Part shown: piece by piece, positions 17,869 through 27,339 of the stretch
Layout: each line of letters opens with the position of its first letter
How positions within the stretch are numbered: position 1 is the first letter of the stretch
Origin: Nanobdellota archaeon
Lineage (GTDB): Archaea > Nanobdellota > Nanobdellia > Pacearchaeales > GW2011-AR1
Length of the DNA stretch: 64,000 nt
Direction: 5' to 3'
NCBI GenBank assembly: GCA_038045945.1
Contig: JBBSXC010000004.1
Span: 224,001 to 288,000 of the forward strand
Made by a program: the position numbers and the translations under genes
The notes under the pieces: generated by a model
Told to the model about the DNA's origin: nothing
The model's database searches: none
Seen by the model: the letters and a program-made list of their open reading frames with translations, nothing else

Positions 17869-17971
17869 AGCCTCTAGAGGGATTTGAACCCCCGACCCCT
17901 AGTTAATTTGGCTTTTGCTTTTTATTTCAAAAACTTACAAAACTAGTGCTCTGCCACTGAGCTATAGAGGC
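17869..17971 (-). tRNA. tRNA-Thr(TGT) with 31-nt intron at 37/38 (intron 17905-17935)
   Basis: GCCTCTA/TAGAGGC acceptor, CTAGT/ACTAG anticodon stem; BHB formed by TTTG:CAAA helix, TAA and TTA bulges and intron stem GTTTTTG:CAAAAGC. Confidence 0.93.
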
Positions 17972-18929: not shown

Positions 18930-19017
18930 AAAATACACTCAAATTATTTGGTTTATAAATCTATGGTCATGATGGACCCATAGTCAAGCATATAAACCTC
19001 CGCCCATTATTAATGTC

Positions 19018-19395
19018 ATGGTTAGGGTAGTATTTGATAAGGGAAAGCAGAAGGAATTTTTTGATTTAATAAAAGAAAAGATAAAACTCTTATCACTAAG
19101 ATCAATAAACCAGTACGGGATTGAAACAAACTACTCCACAATTAAGAACTATTATAATGAAAAAAGACTAATGCCTGAATCATTACTCAAAGAACTATGC
19201 TACTTAGCAAAAATAAACATTGAAGAGTTAAAAGTAAAATACGCTAATGATAACTGGGGTCAAATAAAAGGGGGAAAGAAAGGGATAATAACACTAAGAA
19301 AAAATTATGCTAATAAAGTAGCCTTTTGGAGAAGAAAAGGGGGAAAGGCCAAGGCAAAAAAACATGAAAGCAAGCTATCAACAATCTTTATATAA
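19018..19395 (+). CDS. Hypothetical basic protein with KGG repeats
   Basis: KGKQKEFF, possible HTH region, WGQIKGGKKG and RRKGGK. Confidence 0.6.
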   Translation: MVRVVFDKGKQKEFFDLIKEKIKLLSLRSINQYGIETNYSTIKNYYNEKRLMPESLLKELCYLAKINIEELKVKYANDNWGQIKGGKKGIITLRKNYANKVAFWRRKGGKAKAKKHESKLSTIFI

Positions 19396-19420
19396 GGATC
19401 TAGATTTTCCATTTAAACTC

Positions 19421-19494
19421 GGCCGTATAGTCTAGCTGGTTACGACGCCTCTTTGACGTAGAGGAGATCCCTGGTTCGAATCCAGGTACGACCA
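19421..19494 (+). tRNA. tRNA-Val(GAC)
   Basis: D arm GTC/GAC, arm CCTCT-TTGACGT-AGAGG, CCTGG-TTCGAAT-CCAGG; acceptor has a C3:A70 mismatch; TATA tttatataa upstream. Confidence 0.9.
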
Positions 19495-19541
19495 TGTCCT
19501 TGACGTGGACAATTCCGCAGTTCGATCCTGCGGTAGGGCCA
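19495..19541 (+). ncRNA. Second tRNA-Val(GAC)-like 3' module (anticodon arm, T arm, acceptor 3' strand)
   Basis: TGTCC-TTGACGT-GGACA, CCGCAG-TTCGATC-CTGCGG, TAGGGCC-A, directly abutting the tRNA-Val. Confidence 0.75.
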
Positions 19542-19641
19542 CCCAATTTAAAAAAAAACATTTTCTCTGATGAGGGGTCGGTTTTTTGGTTCTGCATGGG
19601 ACCATAAATAATTAAAGCACTAAGATAAATAATTATTCGTT

Positions 19642-19953
19642 ATGCTTAAAAGAACTACAGTTTACTACGATTCTAAAACGGCAGACCCGACAACTCCTGG
19701 AGTAAGCCATTTAATAATCGAAGAAGGAAAAATAGGTTACATTACAGCAACACTCTACATCACTAGAAGACTAGAGGTATCTCTTAAAGAAGGACAAAGA
19801 CTAGTGCCCATTGGTGAAGCAAGAGAAAAGTATGATTTTAGGGAAATAATGCCCCCATATATTGATCAAAGAGCAATAAGAGAACTTGAAGAGGAGAGAG
19901 ATCAAGAAATAAGAGAAGGAATAAGTAGAAGAATAGGAAGAAAAGTAGCTTAA
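19642..19953 (+). CDS. Hypothetical protein
   Basis: 103-aa ORF, no motif recognised. Confidence 0.5.
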   Translation: MLKRTTVYYDSKTADPTTPGVSHLIIEEGKIGYITATLYITRRLEVSLKEGQRLVPIGEAREKYDFREIMPPYIDQRAIRELEEERDQEIREGISRRIGRKVA

Positions 19954-19997
19954 CAACGGTAAGCAATCTTTATATATCGTTAATTACTAATTCTTGA

Positions 19998-21896
19998 ATG
20001 CTTATTAAAGGGGTAAATAAGAGGGGACAAGTAACAATTTTTGTCATCATAGCACTAGTAATATTGGGAGCAATAGGAATATACTTAGCAACAAATTATT
20101 CTACAACGAATCAAGGAATACCAGAACAATTCCAAGAATTAGAAGAATACTACAATTCATGCATAAAAGAAATAGCCAGTGGGGGAATAAGTATAATAGA
20201 AAACAACGGAGGATTTATAGAAGAACCAGAACTAATAAGAGGAAACCCACAAGAACCATTATCCTCAAAAATAAATTATTTAGGAGAAACAATACCCTAC
20301 TGGTTATACCTAAATGACGGAAAAATAGTAGAGCAAGCGCCAACAAAAAATTCTATGCAAGAACAAATAAGCAAATACATAAAAAACAGAATAAATGAAT
20401 GCAACTTTGAAGATTACTCAAGCCAAGGATACATAATAGAAAGGGGAGAAAACCCTGTAGTGGAAGTAACAATCAATAACAAAGAAGTAACAACAAAGGT
20501 GACAGATCAATTAGTGTACGCAAAAGAAGAAACAAAGCAGCTGGTAAGCAACCACGAAATAAGAATAGACAGTAATCTGGGAGCACTATACAATAAAGCA
20601 ATAGAACTATACAACAAAGAATTACAAAACGAATACTTAGAAAATTATACTGTAGACATGATAAGACTATACGCACCAGTTGATGGAGTAGAAATATCAT
20701 GCTCGCCAAAAGTATGGAAAGAAAAAGAAGTATTCGACGAATTAAGAGAAGCAATAGAAGCAAACACACAACAAATAATGCTGGACTCAGGAAAAAATGA
20801 TGATTCAATGACAACAAAAGAAAAATATTTCACAATACCAATAAGCAGCGACGGACTACAAACATACATGCGATACTCAAAAGACTGGCCAACAAGCATG
20901 AAAATACACCAAAGCGACGGAGGAATACTAATAGCAAACCCGGTAGGAAACCAAGAAGGATTAGGAATACTAGGATTCTGCTACGTACCATACCACTTCG
21001 TATACGACCTAGACTACCCACTAATGATACAAATATTCGATGAAAACAGTGAAGAGATGTTCCAATACCCAATACAAGTAATAATAAGATCAAACCACGC
21101 AAGACAAGGAATAAACCAAGTATACCAGGGACTAGAAAACACAATCTGCAAATACAAAGTAAAAAGCATAGAAGTAAACACCTACGATGAAGAAACATTA
21201 ATGCCAGTAGAAGCACAAATATCATTCAAATGCCTAAACGAAGGATGCTACTTAGGGGAAACAAGAACAGACACAAACAATAACGCAAAAGCAACACTTA
21301 ACGCACCACAATGCGTTAACGGATTCTTAACAGCAACAGCAGAAGGATACAACAAAGGAGAATACCAAATATCAACAAATAACGAAACAATAGCAAACAT
21401 ACTGCTAAAAAAACAATACACACTAAACATAAACGTAAAATACGATGACGGACAAGAAGTAAAAAGCAACGCATTCATATACCTAAAACCTGCAAGAGGA
21501 AACGGAGAAGTAAAAACAGTGGTTTGGCCAGAACAAAAAACAATAACTATAACAGAAGGAGAATATAACATAACAGCATACGCATACGAATTGTCAAACA
21601 TAACACTACCAGGAACAAAAGAAAAAAAGTGCTTCCAAGTACCTAGGCCAGGACTATCAGCAGTACTGGGACTAACAAAAGAACAATGCTACGACATAAC
21701 AATACCAGGACAAAAAATAAGCACGAGCATAAGTGGAGGAGGAAAAACAAACTATTACTTCACACAAAGCCAAATAAGAACACAAAAAAACGTACAAGTA
21801 ACAATACCAAGAGGGCCAACACCAAGAACAATAGAAGCACTACAAACAGCATACGCAATAGCAGACAATAAACAAATAACAATAACAACACAATGA
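19998..21896 (+). CDS. Large class III signal-peptide (pilin-like) surface protein
   Basis: NKRG-QVTIFVIIALVIL cleavage motif; several Cys pairs; beta-sandwich segment with ATAEGY. Confidence 0.8.
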   Translation: MLIKGVNKRGQVTIFVIIALVILGAIGIYLATNYSTTNQGIPEQFQELEEYYNSCIKEIASGGISIIENNGGFIEEPELIRGNPQEPLSSKINYLGETIPYWLYLNDGKIVEQAPTKNSMQEQISKYIKNRINECNFEDYSSQGYIIERGENPVVEVTINNKEVTTKVTDQLVYAKEETKQLVSNHEIRIDSNLGALYNKAIELYNKELQNEYLENYTVDMIRLYAPVDGVEISCSPKVWKEKEVFDELREAIEANTQQIMLDSGKNDDSMTTKEKYFTIPISSDGLQTYMRYSKDWPTSMKIHQSDGGILIANPVGNQEGLGILGFCYVPYHFVYDLDYPLMIQIFDENSEEMFQYPIQVIIRSNHARQGINQVYQGLENTICKYKVKSIEVNTYDEETLMPVEAQISFKCLNEGCYLGETRTDTNNNAKATLNAPQCVNGFLTATAEGYNKGEYQISTNNETIANILLKKQYTLNINVKYDDGQEVKSNAFIYLKPARGNGEVKTVVWPEQKTITITEGEYNITAYAYELSNITLPGTKEKKCFQVPRPGLSAVLGLTKEQCYDITIPGQKISTSISGGGKTNYYFTQSQIRTQKNVQVTIPRGPTPRTIEALQTAYAIADNKQITITTQ

Positions 21897-21924: not shown

Positions 21925-24900
21925 ATGGAACAATTTAACACAATGAAAGTAAAAAAATACTATTTTTACATAACAATAATACTGTTATCAATAATAGCAA
22001 TAACAAACGCAGAAGCAATAACAAACTTCCAAACATTCAACCAAGAAAGAGGTCTAGTAACAAACAACTTCTGGGACATAAACCAAAAAAACGCTATATG
22101 TCAAACAGGACAAGACATGATACTAGAAATAATACCCGGAAGCTGCAGCCCAAGCGTAGTACGAAGCGACTTATTAGAAAGCCAAAACGTACCAGTATTT
22201 TGCCAAGTCACAGGAATAAAAATAAATCCATCAGTAGACCTAGGAAAAATAGCATCAGTAAGCTTCGCAGGAAGCGGAGGACTACCAGAAGGAGTGGCAG
22301 GGATATCATTCTACCCATACAGAGCAGCGGTAACACAAACAAACAACCTATTCACATCAGGAGGAGTAGCAAACATAGGAAACAGCTTAGGATACGTAGT
22401 AGTAGTGCTAAAACAAACACCAGTAGAAAAAGACATGCCAGGGGCAATAATGTTAAACCTAACAGCAAAAATAAGTTATGACGTAAAAAAAGTTTATGGG
22501 TCGGGAAAAGTAGAATACTTCCTACAACAAAACACTGACGAAGAATGGAACGAAAACTACAAAGAATACGGAATATTCAAAGGACAACAATACCTAAGAC
22601 TAGAAGAATTATCAATTGACGGAACGCAAGCAAAAGTAAGCATATACAAAGACAAAGACACAATAATAAATTCAATAAACCTGAGATTAGGAGAACAATC
22701 AAGCCTGCTAAACATACCCGGATTCTACTGCGGAGCAGGAATAAGGATGAAACTAACAGGATCAGAAGCACCAAGAAAAAAAGTACAATTACAAGTGGAC
22801 CAAGACACAATATGGCTACATGAAGGACAAAAATTCCTAAACGAACAATGCGTCGTACGAAGTATTGAAATAACAAACAGAACAAGAAATAACGGGCTAG
22901 AAAAAGGGATAGTAAGAATAAGCTGCCCTAAGGGAAGTTACGAACTAGAAATAAGCGAATTAGACCAAAGCCTAGGGACACAAAACATAGCCTGGGACAA
23001 AGTATTAGCAGGAATAAGCTCAGACCCAACAAAAAAACAAATAATAGAAAGTTTTGAAAAAGCAAAAGAAGAAGCATACCTAGTAGCAGACCTATACACA
23101 AGCGAAAAAAGAAGCAATAACGAAAATTACAAACCAGGACAATTCTACGGCCTTTCAGACTTGCAAGAACTGGCAATAACAGCACAAAACCTAGGACAAT
23201 ATAAAACAGAACTAGAAATACAAGAAAAAATCATAAGCAAATATCCTGGAACAATTGAAGAATTAGAATCACAAAAAAGGATAGGGGAACTAAAAAACTT
23301 TTCATACATAAAAGCAAACGCAATAACAACAGTAGACTTCTCAATACACACAATAACAATAAAAAATTATAAGAATCCAGCAGTAAGCGAAGCAAGCGTA
23401 GAATTTGACAGACCAGCAGAACCAAGGATAATAGGAGACTACATATACACAACAGACAAAAACCAAACTGCTGGAGAAGCAGCAGAAACATGGGTAAGGA
23501 TAAGAGAAATAAAAAAAGACTCAATAATACTACAAGCAAGAATAACAGAAACAATAAAAGACGCTAACGGAAAAGAAACAAAAAACGTTAGAAGCGCAGA
23601 CTACACGATGACAGAAGGACAAACACTAGCAACAATAAACGGACTAAACCTGCCAGGACTAATCGGGGGAATTAACGGAAACAATGTACAACTAAAAAAG
23701 ATTAATCTTAAAGTAGAAGCAAAAGTAGAAGTGGTACCAGAAATATTACAAACAGGAAGCAGCAGCAACTTCACATTCAAAGTAGCAATAGAAAAAAGAG
23801 GAATAAAAATATCAACAGAAAAAACAGAGGAGATGATAAGAAACATTAATGAATCAATAGAAAAATTCACAAAAATAACAGAAAAATTAGGCCAGGCAGT
23901 AGAAACAGGAAAAGCAGCATGCCTAGCAGGAAGCTCAGCACTATTCATTAAAAACTTCATAGCAAATGCAGGAGGAGCAGCAGGCTCAAGAGCAGAAGTA
24001 ATGAACGGACCAGACGGATGGTACCAAAAATGTGATAGGTTAGTAAAAAGTAGCCCTAGCCAATACAACAACCTAAACGACTGCTTACTAAAAAACAACG
24101 CAAACATACAAGAAGACGTAACAAAATGGACAGAAGCAGAAAAAGCAGTTAATACACAATTCGACAATGTGTACAACAAAGAAAACATAACAGGATCACA
24201 ACAAGAATTCATAAAAGTATTCGCAAACGACGTGTGCGGAGGAAAACTAAAAGACAAACAAATAACCATTGAAGAAAAAACAAAAATCATTTGCGGACAA
24301 GGAGGAGTATTCGAAAACAAAGAAGCAGTAATAGCGGCTTATAACCAAGGAGACTTCACAATAGCAGACGCAAAAAAAGTAATGACTGCATCACAAACAT
24401 ACGGAGGAGCAAACACGATAAGCCAAAATACTGACACATTAGGAGCGCAAAAAATAAACGGTTTCTTCTCAAACATGCAAAGAAGGCCAGGACTAACAAC
24501 GGCAAACTATGCTGGTGCTTTAGGAACAGCATCTGGAAAAGTATTCTCAGCATACTCGCCAGACACAAGAATAGCAAACGTTGAAGTAATTGAAGTAAAA
24601 GCGGGAGACAAACTAGGGGGGACGGTTGATGTGAAAGAGGGAAGATACACACTAATATCTGTAGCACCAGGAACAAGATTCGCCGACCCTGCATCAACAA
24701 CAAAACTAGCAGGAAAAGTATTAGTAGTGCCAGTAACAACAGACGCATCAGGAAACGTACAATTAAACGAAAGCGACCCAACAAAAAACATAATAATAGA
24801 CTCGAATGGAAAAAATGTGGACACATTCACAAGAGACGAATACGGGCAGGTATTAGGACAAAACAAAATATCAAGCTTCAAATCAATAACAGAATCACAA

Positions 24901-27339
24901 GCATCATGCTCAAACTATTACCAAAACCCAACAGTAAAATACTTCACAAGCGGACAATACAGCGGACTACCAGCAGTAGTACCAATAGATACAGCAAAAG
25001 GGTGGTACGTAGCAACAAAAGACAGCGAACTAGCGCCATACACAGAAGCAGGACAACTAAGAACATTCTGGATTTGTAACGTAGGAAAAGATGGACTAGA
25101 ACAATTCGATTACGACACAGACGACAAACACACATGCTTCCAAGTAAACCTGGATAAAGGAACACCAGTAGACCAAAGCTACTGCTTTAACGAAGCAGAA
25201 ACAAGGCAAATAATCAGCAGAGCACAACAAGCAATCGGGCAAGCAGGAAAATACGACCAAGGAAGAACAAAAACAAACATCCTTGGAACAAACTACAACA
25301 TAGAAAAAGTAGCATCAAGCGCACCAGGAACACAATGCCAAGACTTCATGAGCCCAAGCGATTGTAACATAATGTTCAATCTGTGCGACCCGGTAATATG
25401 CCCAGCAAGCAGATGCGACCTAGGAGGAACATACAGAGTTGACGACGTAATACAATCAGGAATAGCAGGAAGCATAGCACTATGCTTACCAAACGCAAAA
25501 GAAGGAATATATGTGCCAATATGCTTATCAGGAATATACGCGGGCCTGGACGCATACACAAGCGTGCAAAAAGCACACAGAGACTGCCTACAAAATTCCC
25601 TCGCAACAGGACAATACACAGGACTGTGTGACGAAATAAGATCAGTATACATGTGCGAATTCTTCTGGAGACAAGCAACACCAATAATAAAAGCAGGAAT
25701 ACCAAAACTAATAGAAGGATTAACATCAAGCAACACCGCAAGAGCTGGAGGAGAATACTCAAACTTCCAAAAAGCATACACAACAGCAGACCAATCAGTA
25801 AACTACTTCACACAAGTATACGGACAACAAGCATTCTCAGCATTCAAAATAAGAAGCACGGCAGACATAGGAACACAAGTATGCCAACAATTCGCATCAG
25901 CAAACTACCCAGACAGCGCAAGCATAATAGACTCACTAATAAAACCAGAAAGCCCAGTACAATTCTACGCACAATTCGACGAAATACCATACAGCGAAGC
26001 AACAGTACCGCCAACAAGCCAATACAACGTATTCTACCACATATACGCAGGAAAAGAAAAAGGAACATACTTCACAGTATACCTAAAGAACCCCCCACAA
26101 AACGGGCTATACGCAGGACAAGAAACAATACTAATAAACCAAGGGTTCATACCAGCAGGAGAATACGATTCACAAAAAATAGAAAAAACACTACCATCAG
26201 GATACAGAGAACTATGCGTAAACATTAACGGAAAAGACGAATGCGGATTCCAAAAAGTAACAACAGACTACGGAATAAACACGCTAGGAGACAAATACGC
26301 ACAAGAACAAGCAACAAACCAAGCAGTAACAAAAGAAGAAGAATGCATAAACGGAGACTCAAGCATATACTCACTAGCAAATTCGAATCTAGAAGCAGGT
26401 CTGGATAATGCTCTAAACCCTGCAATATACCAACAAGGAATAATAAGAATGTGCTCTGCACAAAACCCAGGACAAAACGCAGGAGATAACACAGGCCTAG
26501 AAACAGTAAGGTGGAAAGACGTAGGATACTGCACAGACCAAAAAATAAGATGCTGGTTAGACACAACAAGCGTGAAAGAAGTAATAAAAAACAAACAAAT
26601 ACAAAACCAAACAATAGAACAGGTAAGCCAACAACTTGGAGAACCATCACAAGGACAAGCAGAACAAAGAATAAGCGCAGCACTAGGAATAATAAACGGG
26701 GTAACATTCGCAGCAATACAACCAGCACAACTGTATCCTAGCATAATTGACCCAATGACAGAAATAGAACAAGACGCATTCCCATCATTCACAAAAGTAC
26801 GCGCAACAGACACAAAATTCCAAGCATTCATAAAAATAGTAAACGGGCTATACGCAGGACAAACAATAAACAACATAAATACAATAAGCACAAATGTAGC
26901 AAACGCAACAGCACAAATAAAAAGAGACTGCGAAATAACAGGGTACACAATACCCCCAGTAAACCCATTAACTACAGGAAAAACATTACCATTCCTAATA
27001 AACTTCGCAGGACAATGCAACGATTGGAACACAACAACAGTAGAGCTAATAAAAATTGGAGATCCGAACTACGCAAACCAAGATTTTACTCAACAAACAT
27101 ACCAGCATCAAATTGATTTGCAAAAAGAAAAAGGAGTATTCTCACAAAACATAGCGCTAACAGAAAAGGGAAAATATTTCCTAAAAATAAGTTTAACATA
27201 CAAAGACTCACAAGGAAGAACATTCACAGAAATAAGTTATAACGGAAAAGGAAAACAACAATTCGAAGTAATAGACGGAGGAGCAAGCGGAGCGACAAAC
27301 CAAAGTCCAGGAGCTCCAGGAACTTTAGGAAACCCCTAA
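21925..27339 (+). CDS. Very large secreted Cys-rich hypothetical protein (1804 aa)
   Basis: N-terminal signal peptide, uninterrupted ORF with native codon bias, dense Cys cluster in the C-terminal half. Confidence 0.8.
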   Translation: MEQFNTMKVKKYYFYITIILLSIIAITNAEAITNFQTFNQERGLVTNNFWDINQKNAICQTGQDMILEIIPGSCSPSVVRSDLLESQNVPVFCQVTGIKINPSVDLGKIASVSFAGSGGLPEGVAGISFYPYRAAVTQTNNLFTSGGVANIGNSLGYVVVVLKQTPVEKDMPGAIMLNLTAKISYDVKKVYGSGKVEYFLQQNTDEEWNENYKEYGIFKGQQYLRLEELSIDGTQAKVSIYKDKDTIINSINLRLGEQSSLLNIPGFYCGAGIRMKLTGSEAPRKKVQLQVDQDTIWLHEGQKFLNEQCVVRSIEITNRTRNNGLEKGIVRISCPKGSYELEISELDQSLGTQNIAWDKVLAGISSDPTKKQIIESFEKAKEEAYLVADLYTSEKRSNNENYKPGQFYGLSDLQELAITAQNLGQYKTELEIQEKIISKYPGTIEELESQKRIGELKNFSYIKANAITTVDFSIHTITIKNYKNPAVSEASVEFDRPAEPRIIGDYIYTTDKNQTAGEAAETWVRIREIKKDSIILQARITETIKDANGKETKNVRSADYTMTEGQTLATINGLNLPGLIGGINGNNVQLKKINLKVEAKVEVVPEILQTGSSSNFTFKVAIEKRGIKISTEKTEEMIRNINESIEKFTKITEKLGQAVETGKAACLAGSSALFIKNFIANAGGAAGSRAEVMNGPDGWYQKCDRLVKSSPSQYNNLNDCLLKNNANIQEDVTKWTEAEKAVNTQFDNVYNKENITGSQQEFIKVFANDVCGGKLKDKQITIEEKTKIICGQGGVFENKEAVIAAYNQGDFTIADAKKVMTASQTYGGANTISQNTDTLGAQKINGFFSNMQRRPGLTTANYAGALGTASGKVFSAYSPDTRIANVEVIEVKAGDKLGGTVDVKEGRYTLISVAPGTRFADPASTTKLAGKVLVVPVTTDASGNVQLNESDPTKNIIIDSNGKNVDTFTRDEYGQVLGQNKISSFKSITESQASCSNYYQNPTVKYFTSGQYSGLPAVVPIDTAKGWYVATKDSELAPYTEAGQLRTFWICNVGKDGLEQFDYDTDDKHTCFQVNLDKGTPVDQSYCFNEAETRQIISRAQQAIGQAGKYDQGRTKTNILGTNYNIEKVASSAPGTQCQDFMSPSDCNIMFNLCDPVICPASRCDLGGTYRVDDVIQSGIAGSIALCLPNAKEGIYVPICLSGIYAGLDAYTSVQKAHRDCLQNSLATGQYTGLCDEIRSVYMCEFFWRQATPIIKAGIPKLIEGLTSSNTARAGGEYSNFQKAYTTADQSVNYFTQVYGQQAFSAFKIRSTADIGTQVCQQFASANYPDSASIIDSLIKPESPVQFYAQFDEIPYSEATVPPTSQYNVFYHIYAGKEKGTYFTVYLKNPPQNGLYAGQETILINQGFIPAGEYDSQKIEKTLPSGYRELCVNINGKDECGFQKVTTDYGINTLGDKYAQEQATNQAVTKEEECINGDSSIYSLANSNLEAGLDNALNPAIYQQGIIRMCSAQNPGQNAGDNTGLETVRWKDVGYCTDQKIRCWLDTTSVKEVIKNKQIQNQTIEQVSQQLGEPSQGQAEQRISAALGIINGVTFAAIQPAQLYPSIIDPMTEIEQDAFPSFTKVRATDTKFQAFIKIVNGLYAGQTINNINTISTNVANATAQIKRDCEITGYTIPPVNPLTTGKTLPFLINFAGQCNDWNTTTVELIKIGDPNYANQDFTQQTYQHQIDLQKEKGVFSQNIALTEKGKYFLKISLTYKDSQGRTFTEISYNGKGKQQFEVIDGGASGATNQSPGAPGTLGNP

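Follow-up and report, generated by a model that had tools for sequence, protein, structure and literature searches.

A tRNA-Val(GAC) gene with a second 3' body directly behind it

In the window, i.e., the whole stretch of 64,000 nt analysed here, a complete tRNA-Val(GAC) gene is followed without a gap by a second anticodon arm with the identical loop TTGACGT, and behind this arm lie a second T arm and a second 3' acceptor strand with its discriminator base (Table 1). The original prediction, made from the sequence letters, had described this arrangement, and it was recovered with ARAGORN, Rfam and inspection of the sequence. The different, fully paired stem of the second anticodon arm (TGTCC/GGACA versus CCTCT/AGAGG) was likewise confirmed. 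The predicted second T arm is present; however, its stem had been counted as 6 bp by including C19515 and G19533. Homology to 36 of 36 relatives of the same family gives the stem the usual 5 bp, assigns C19515 to the end of the variable region and leaves G19533 as a surplus base.

Table 1. Features in and around the tRNA-Val(GAC) locus. Positions refer to the window.
Feature	Position	Strand	Basis or remark
125-aa ORF	19018-19395	+	no Pfam family
TATA-like element TTTATATAA	19387-19395	+	34 nt upstream of the tRNA; overlaps the stop codon of the upstream 125-aa ORF
Complete tRNA-Val(GAC), 74 nt	19421-19494	+	ARAGORN; Rfam RF00005, 58.3 bits versus a gathering score of 29
TACGAC, first copy	19441-19446
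Anticodon stem CCTCT/AGAGG of the complete gene	19448-19452 / 19460-19464
Anticodon loop TTGACGT of the complete gene	19453-19459
Junction microhomology GGTACGACCA	19485-19494	+	last ten bases of the complete gene; BLAST alignments to relatives
TACGAC, second copy	19487-19492
Second module, putative relic 3' part of a family-type tRNA-Val(GAC)	19495-19541	+	homology to relatives; unique in the genome
Second anticodon arm: TGTCC, loop TTGACGT, GGACA	19495-19499, 19500-19506, 19507-19511	+
Second variable region	19512-19515	+
Second T arm	19516-19532	+
Extra G	19533	+	between T stem and acceptor strand
Second 3' acceptor strand TAGGGCC	19534-19540	+
Discriminator A	19541	+
103-aa ORF	19642-19953	+	no Pfam family
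632-aa protein	19998-21896	+	no Pfam family
1804-aa protein	21925-27339	+	no Pfam family

The complete gene has a canonical cloverleaf and scores above the curated Rfam threshold. It carries a D arm of the ACGAC type and a 5-nt variable region (AGATC), and is the sole tRNA-Val(GAC) detected among the 41 tRNAs of the genome. As predicted, its 5' strand GGCCGTA pairs at six of seven positions with either 3' strand: C3.A70, the only mismatch of the complete gene, is found against the first (TACGACC) and G5.G68 against the second (TAGGGCC). The occurrence of TACGAC both in the D arm and in the first acceptor strand was also correctly noted.

The second module starts zero nt after the complete gene and has neither a 5' acceptor strand nor a D arm of its own. 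Both modules have 32 of 47-48 bases in common, and the longest common stretch is the 7-nt loop. When the second module alone was searched with Rfam, no tRNA match was obtained even at E-values up to 10 and only chance-level matches appeared. Allowing up to three mismatches, its 47 nt are unique in the genome. A search for T-arm-like hairpins outside the annotated tRNAs gave five raw hits in the 847-kb genome, and tRNA-like flanks were present only at the second module.

The host genome comprises 847 kb in 7 contigs, is 93% complete and has a G+C content of about 35%. The gene content of the window is archaeal, with the ribosomal proteins S3Ae and L44e and a GINS subunit (Pfam) and with intron-containing tRNAs. 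The runs listed as containing its DNA are groundwater metagenomes, with no RNA run among them. Genome size and habitat suggest a DPANN-like archaeon. The 41 tRNA genes of the genome include four with introns. A tRNA-Thr(TGT) with a 31-nt intron on the minus strand of the window (17869-17971) was missed by ARAGORN with default settings and detected by Rfam and by ARAGORN when introns were permitted; in our own scan it contains a bulge-helix-bulge motif of fitting span.

Relationship of the two modules to other tRNA-Val genes

A BLAST search with 19421-19545 against 401 genomes of the order gave matches in 124 genomes, including the host genome. Within the same family 97 genomes match, 82 of them to 19485-19545 and 15 to the part of the complete gene; all 26 matching genomes of other families match the part of the complete gene only. 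What matches within the family are ordinary tRNA-Val(GAC) genes, complete and 71-73 nt long. Among the 15 same-family genomes that match the complete gene, ten do so with a Val(GAC) gene (one with an intron) and four with Val(TAC), and one match has no tRNA call.

The second module is 86-93% identical to the tRNA-Val(GAC) genes of relatives, with per-genome E-values down to 1e-13, which exceeds chance resemblance by far. The related loci contain 49 tRNA-Val(GAC) genes, of which the 47 intron-less ones were used for comparison; identity to the module is 42/47 for four genes and at least 38/47 for 30. With the extra base set aside, the module shares on average 38.4 of 46 bases with 36 same-family genes, and those genes share 36.7 of 46 among themselves. 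It agrees with all columns conserved in at least 90% of these 36 genes and both of its stems are fully paired. Its length of 47 nt differs from the 46 nt found in 36/36 family genes by the surplus G19533. Syntenic homology (see below), the missing 5' acceptor strand and D arm and the one extra base are what is expected of a relic of an orthologous gene. From these comparisons the second module very probably descends from the family's own tRNA-Val(GAC) gene. It is quite likely to be functionless now.

The complete gene is of another kind. Its best full-length identity to any relative is 57/74 and its 3' part is identical to the 47 intron-less tRNA-Val(GAC) genes at no more than 37 of 48 bases. 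When 185,579 species representatives were searched for exact copies of its anticodon arm together with the variable region, no match and thus no donor was obtained. A paralogue within the same genome was rejected as source, as the closest other tRNA reaches 53/74 and Val(TAC) does not rank within the best eight. Two same-family Val(GAC) genes (L086 and L098) carry the same anticodon arm with the CCTCT stem, so that this arm is not foreign to the family. The ACGAC D arm and the AGATC variable region are those seen in tRNA-Val genes from elsewhere in the order, outside the family, and in some same-family Val(TAC) genes.

For a wider comparison 87 distinct intron-less Val tRNAs were collected. 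A 3' part of 47 nt is found in nine of the ten with an ACGAC D arm and in 15 of the 76 without it; as the genes are related to each other no statistical test was applied to these counts, and one more ACGAC gene with a 61-nt 3' part, a probable parsing error, was excluded. This co-occurrence speaks for the whole of the complete gene as one coherent unit. Judged by sequence, it is a type that differs from the family-typical gene, with no close match among the sequences searched, and the two modules are two different tRNA-Val alleles, the second of which is family-typical. The original prediction had called the modules covarying. What differs between them is the sequence of two alleles, not covariation within one evolving RNA.

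A reciprocal swap with Val(TAC) was also considered and rejected. The Val(TAC) gene of the genome is of the normal family type and up to 89% identical to relatives, and no Val(CAC) relic lies beside it. At this second locus (contig C5, 2233-3233) Val(TAC) is accompanied by Gly(GCC), and neither a Val(CAC) gene nor a relic of one was found there; in a genome of the same genus (L131, G001:C11) Val(TAC), Val(CAC) and Gly(GCC) stand in a row.

Conservation of the locus, the join and the transcript

The gene order S3Ae, L44e, 125-aa ORF, tRNA-Val(GAC), 632-aa protein recurs in reference genomes of the family and in metagenome loci, and the second module thus sits where the Val(GAC) gene of the family belongs; we read it as the 3' two-thirds of this gene. 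The orientation of this gene is variable. In seven reference genomes of the family with visible flanks it has the same direction as L44e, opposite to the host genome, which requires an additional inversion or re-insertion unless the orientation was already polymorphic. In the metagenome loci a tRNA-Val(GAC) lies downstream of the 125-aa homologue on the plus strand in six cases and on the minus strand in seven, and in five loci it is absent between the conserved neighbours. A site at which relatives have the Val gene in different orientations or not at all is prone to rearrangement. Recurrent flip or loss of Val(GAC) at the one intergenic site between the 125-aa ORF and the 632-aa gene can be followed in L028-L049 and L003-L017.

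In 80 related loci (253 kb) no comparable remnant was found, apart from one doubtful hairpin. This hairpin (L060, 2342-2358, minus strand) is a lone CCAGG TTCAAAT CCTGG about 0.8 kb from the tRNA-Val of the relative G130 and has no other tRNA features. A search for closer relatives with the 125-aa neighbour gave 32 metagenome loci, none above about 52% identity and none with a remnant. In the same-genus genome G001 the contig begins 160 nt upstream of the L44e gene and the locus lies outside it. Conservation in relatives, which the original prediction had proposed to check, was not seen in the 80 related loci. A contig of a second lineage, described below, shares the join and the next 15 nt.

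Several observations concern the neighbouring genes. The 125-aa and the 632-aa proteins keep their place beside L44e and S3Ae in many relatives and metagenome loci and form a conserved neighbourhood without assigned function. The 103-aa ORF directly after the second module gave a single weak match (E = 0.006) in 40 related genomes; possibly it is no real gene, or it was left behind by the event that rearranged the site. Long introns of about 45-95 nt occur in tRNA-Val or neighbouring tRNA genes of several relatives (L012/L021, which is G025, L039, L015 and L016).

The join itself coincides with a short resemblance. The last ten bases of the complete gene, GGTACGACCA, resemble the 3' strand of the D arm plus base 26 (GGTAGACCA) of the family-type tRNA-Val(GAC) at 9 of 10 bases (L060, L062-L064), and with several family genes the BLAST alignment sets in at 19485 (query base 65), ten bases before the second module. 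As the join falls exactly at the resemblance of GGTACGACCA and GGTAGACCA, the likeliest event would be an illegitimate recombination guided by microhomology. Either a deletion or a one-sided replacement guided in this way would also explain the absence of a gap. We give this mechanism about an even chance. A crossover within the first bases of the 5' strand GGCCGTA, which is one base off the partner of either 3' strand, is possible as well.

The reality of the join was checked on contigs assembled per run. Two contigs of 22.6 kb and 48 kb, assembled separately from two samples, show no differences over 19000-20000, although these samples may be the source of the genome assembly. A contig of 409 nt from a further run of one of these samples spans the join (19438-19846). 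In a different study (run X5) a contig of 151 nt is identical over 19421-19509, while about a quarter of the 30 nt upstream differ. This contig, which is of low depth and ends 15 nt into the second module, reveals a second lineage in which gene and join are the same.

Upstream of the complete gene the TATA-like element TTTATATAA would serve as promoter; in our own motif scan such a motif was present at -31 to -38 before 11 of the 41 tRNA genes, including this one. The motif at -34, the position as sole Val(GAC) among the 41 tRNAs and the identity in the second lineage are evidence that the complete gene functions. No T-run lies between the modules. The first TTTT follows 66 nt after 19494, compared to a median distance of 17.5 nt for those 30 of the 41 tRNAs with a TTTT in the following 120 nt. 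Given the missing T-run and the late TTTT, the pre-tRNA probably includes the second module in its 3' trailer.

Probable replacement of the family gene and rival readings

Taken together, we favour the reading that a working tRNA-Val(GAC) has been fused head-to-tail to the dead remnant of the family's Val(GAC) gene in the course of a gene replacement, and we regard this as probable. A gene of another type would have arrived at the Val(GAC) locus of the family, and the old gene would have lost its 5' acceptor strand and D arm and kept its anticodon arm, T arm and 3' acceptor strand. Guided by the microhomology, either two neighbouring Val genes could have been merged by a deletion, or incoming DNA could have replaced the old gene from one side. 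Today the remnant would probably make up the first 47 nt of the pre-tRNA 3' trailer and be removed by an RNase Z cut at 19494. The data show the homology of the remnant to the family gene, the synteny, the microhomology and that the join is real; the order of events, the mechanism of recombination, co-transcription and the lack of function are inferred from them. Among the four options of the original prediction, replacement of a 3' part of a resident tRNA by a viral one comes closest to this. Its replacement component fits the data, but a viral or plasmid source found no support, as an exact pattern search in viral contigs and blastn against phage records both gave no matches.

Some observations stand against the favoured reading. 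The remnant is strikingly intact, with paired stems and unchanged conserved columns, which is also the expected outcome of selection. The second lineage keeps the first 15 bases of the remnant unchanged on its one low-depth contig, in spite of the differences in the 30 nt upstream. Neither a donor nor a close relative of the working gene was found, and the state expected before a deletion, two adjacent Val genes, was seen in none of the related loci examined. Finally, with neither 3' strand does the 5' acceptor strand form a perfect stem.

The same locus could have arisen as the scar of an attachment site, which we consider unlikely. An integrating element would have supplied the new 3' part (19447-19494) and displaced the native one, the 5' part (19421-19446) would be native, and the body of the element would have been deleted later. 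The remnant spans exactly from the anticodon stem to the 3' end, the typical extent of a tRNA attachment site, the TACGAC direct repeats flank 19447-19486, and the 5' part is identical to the same-family gene L073 at 22 of 26 bases. The rearrangement-prone site and the orphan 103-aa ORF behind the remnant would fit as well. However, the D-arm type goes with the 3' part of the working gene, and the remnant is no repeat of the resident 3' part, with which it shares 32 of 47-48 bases. Not a single base separates the two 3' parts, and no integrase gene lies in the neighbourhood; the only tyrosine recombinase found in the genome (PF00589) is 66 kb away, and viral or phage matches are missing. As site-specific recombination cannot make the two parts adjacent, a second, illegitimate deletion would be needed.

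When elements integrate in archaea and bacteria, partial tRNA genes beside intact ones are a well-known consequence, and those of archaea are the precedent for such a scar (van der Gulik et al. 2023, PMC9897764). Compared with these attL/attR partial tRNA genes, the locus is alike in that an intact gene is followed by a 3' fragment of the same isotype, as a presumably non-functional marker of recombination, and in that the fragment reaches from inside the tRNA to its 3' end. It differs from them in that near-identity, an intervening element and an integrase are all lacking, no gap is present, and a microhomology takes the place of the identity block. Moreover, the fragment is a diverged allele which matches the family's own gene and does not repeat the resident one. 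The locus is best seen as a recombination scar of a known kind in an unusual fused form with a tidy join; displacement of the original gene's body and its fusion to the replacement at a microhomology describe it better than an attachment-site duplication.

Insertion of a small cassette is a further alternative, and quite an unlikely one. Here 47 nt (19447-19493), the 3' body of another tRNA-Val, would have been captured between D arm and anticodon stem of an otherwise native gene, with TACGAC as microhomology at both ends. The two copies of TACGAC speak for this. The 5' part resembles same-family genes (22/26) and other-family genes (21/26) to much the same degree, and in the 5' strand C3 agrees with the remnant and G5 with the first 3' strand. 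Against this, the ACGAC D arm comes with a 47-nt 3' part in nine of ten cases, and among the family-type 46-nt Val(GAC) bodies it was seen in only 1 of 62; moreover, the D loop exceeds that of the listed same-family Val(GAC) genes by one base.

Only a very small probability is assigned to a functional composite RNA, in which the second module would be co-transcribed and act as an alternative 3' body, as a trailer that controls maturation, or as a stable RNA released by RNase Z. Besides the missing T-run and the late TTTT, the minimum-free-energy fold of 19421-19545, in which the distal 3' strand is the partner of the 5' strand, is compatible with this; so are the intact stems and conserved columns of the remnant and the identity of the join and the next 15 nt in the second lineage. 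When the 5' part and the second module were joined by script, the product was accepted as tRNA-Val by ARAGORN, but only at a relaxed threshold, and this joined form requires an 8-bp acceptor stem with G.G and T.G. The fold energies are unremarkable (z = -1.5 and -1.6), and the 80 related loci contain no comparable module except for the doubtful hairpin. As both modules carry the anticodon GAC, a second product adds no decoding capacity.

Processing into a second tRNA finds little support in the sequence. A strict bulge-helix-bulge motif was not found in 19401-19560 with a simple scan of our own that uses no trained model and that recovers a motif of the right span in two of the four intron tRNAs of the genome; a relaxed version gave 56 matches, which were treated as noise. 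The reading as an intron or splicing product was rejected on this ground. An orphan 5' half, for which the original prediction had suggested to search, did not emerge either: a 25-nt guess with up to five substitutions gave no match in the 93%-complete genome, and patterns of 12 nt gave 15 matches, one being the gene itself. The two inspected (C1:111439 and C3:102885) do not continue tRNA-like; this result rests on two of the 14 matches outside the gene, the other 12 being one-mismatch matches. The readings as two alternative tRNAs, an intron or a split half are not borne out: these searches found neither a bulge-helix-bulge motif nor an orphan 5' half, both modules carry the same anticodon, and the second module has the extra base and the G.G mismatch.

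Split and tri-split tRNA genes occur in Nanoarchaeum equitans and Caldivirga maquilingensis. The locus resembles them in that it belongs to an archaeon with a small genome and that its pieces are bounded near the anticodon arm, and sharing of a piece would be possible in principle. It differs in that a separate 5' half, a complementary leader and a bulge-helix-bulge motif are all lacking, and with the same anticodon in both modules such sharing would add nothing.

The second module could conceivably act as a regulatory or decoy RNA, as originally suggested. Selection on the remnant, either as a tRNA-like 3' trailer that gates maturation of the sole Val(GAC) because its acceptor strand competes with the true one for the 5' strand, as in the minimum-free-energy fold, or as a two-hairpin small RNA released by RNase Z, is improbable; a small probability is kept for a functional trailer because of the intact remnant and its sharing by the second lineage.

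An assembly artefact that joined the alleles of two strains is hardly credible: the genome was assembled from a metagenome, the samples are rich in related tRNA-Val genes and partial contigs of other organisms pile up on 19490-19532, but the join is reproduced without differences in separate contigs from three runs of two samples and in the 151-nt contig of the different study, and with no common stretch beyond the 7-nt loop the modules are too dissimilar to confuse an assembly program.

No description of a fused heterologous tRNA remnant was found in the literature listings searched, which is weak evidence that this form is undescribed. Should conservation and processing of the remnant be demonstrated, the locus would offer a small example of how a scar can be drawn into tRNA maturation and regulate tRNA supply. 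With the favoured replacement, a displaced 3' body fused to the new gene may mislead readers toward split or dual tRNAs, and the locus is therefore of value for annotation and for the study of tRNA turnover. The intergenic site is marked as a hot spot at which the Val gene stands in either orientation or is absent among relatives. For the organism, the replacement reading would mean that in a reduced archaeal genome a tRNA gene can be replaced in place by another allele through recombination at short homology.
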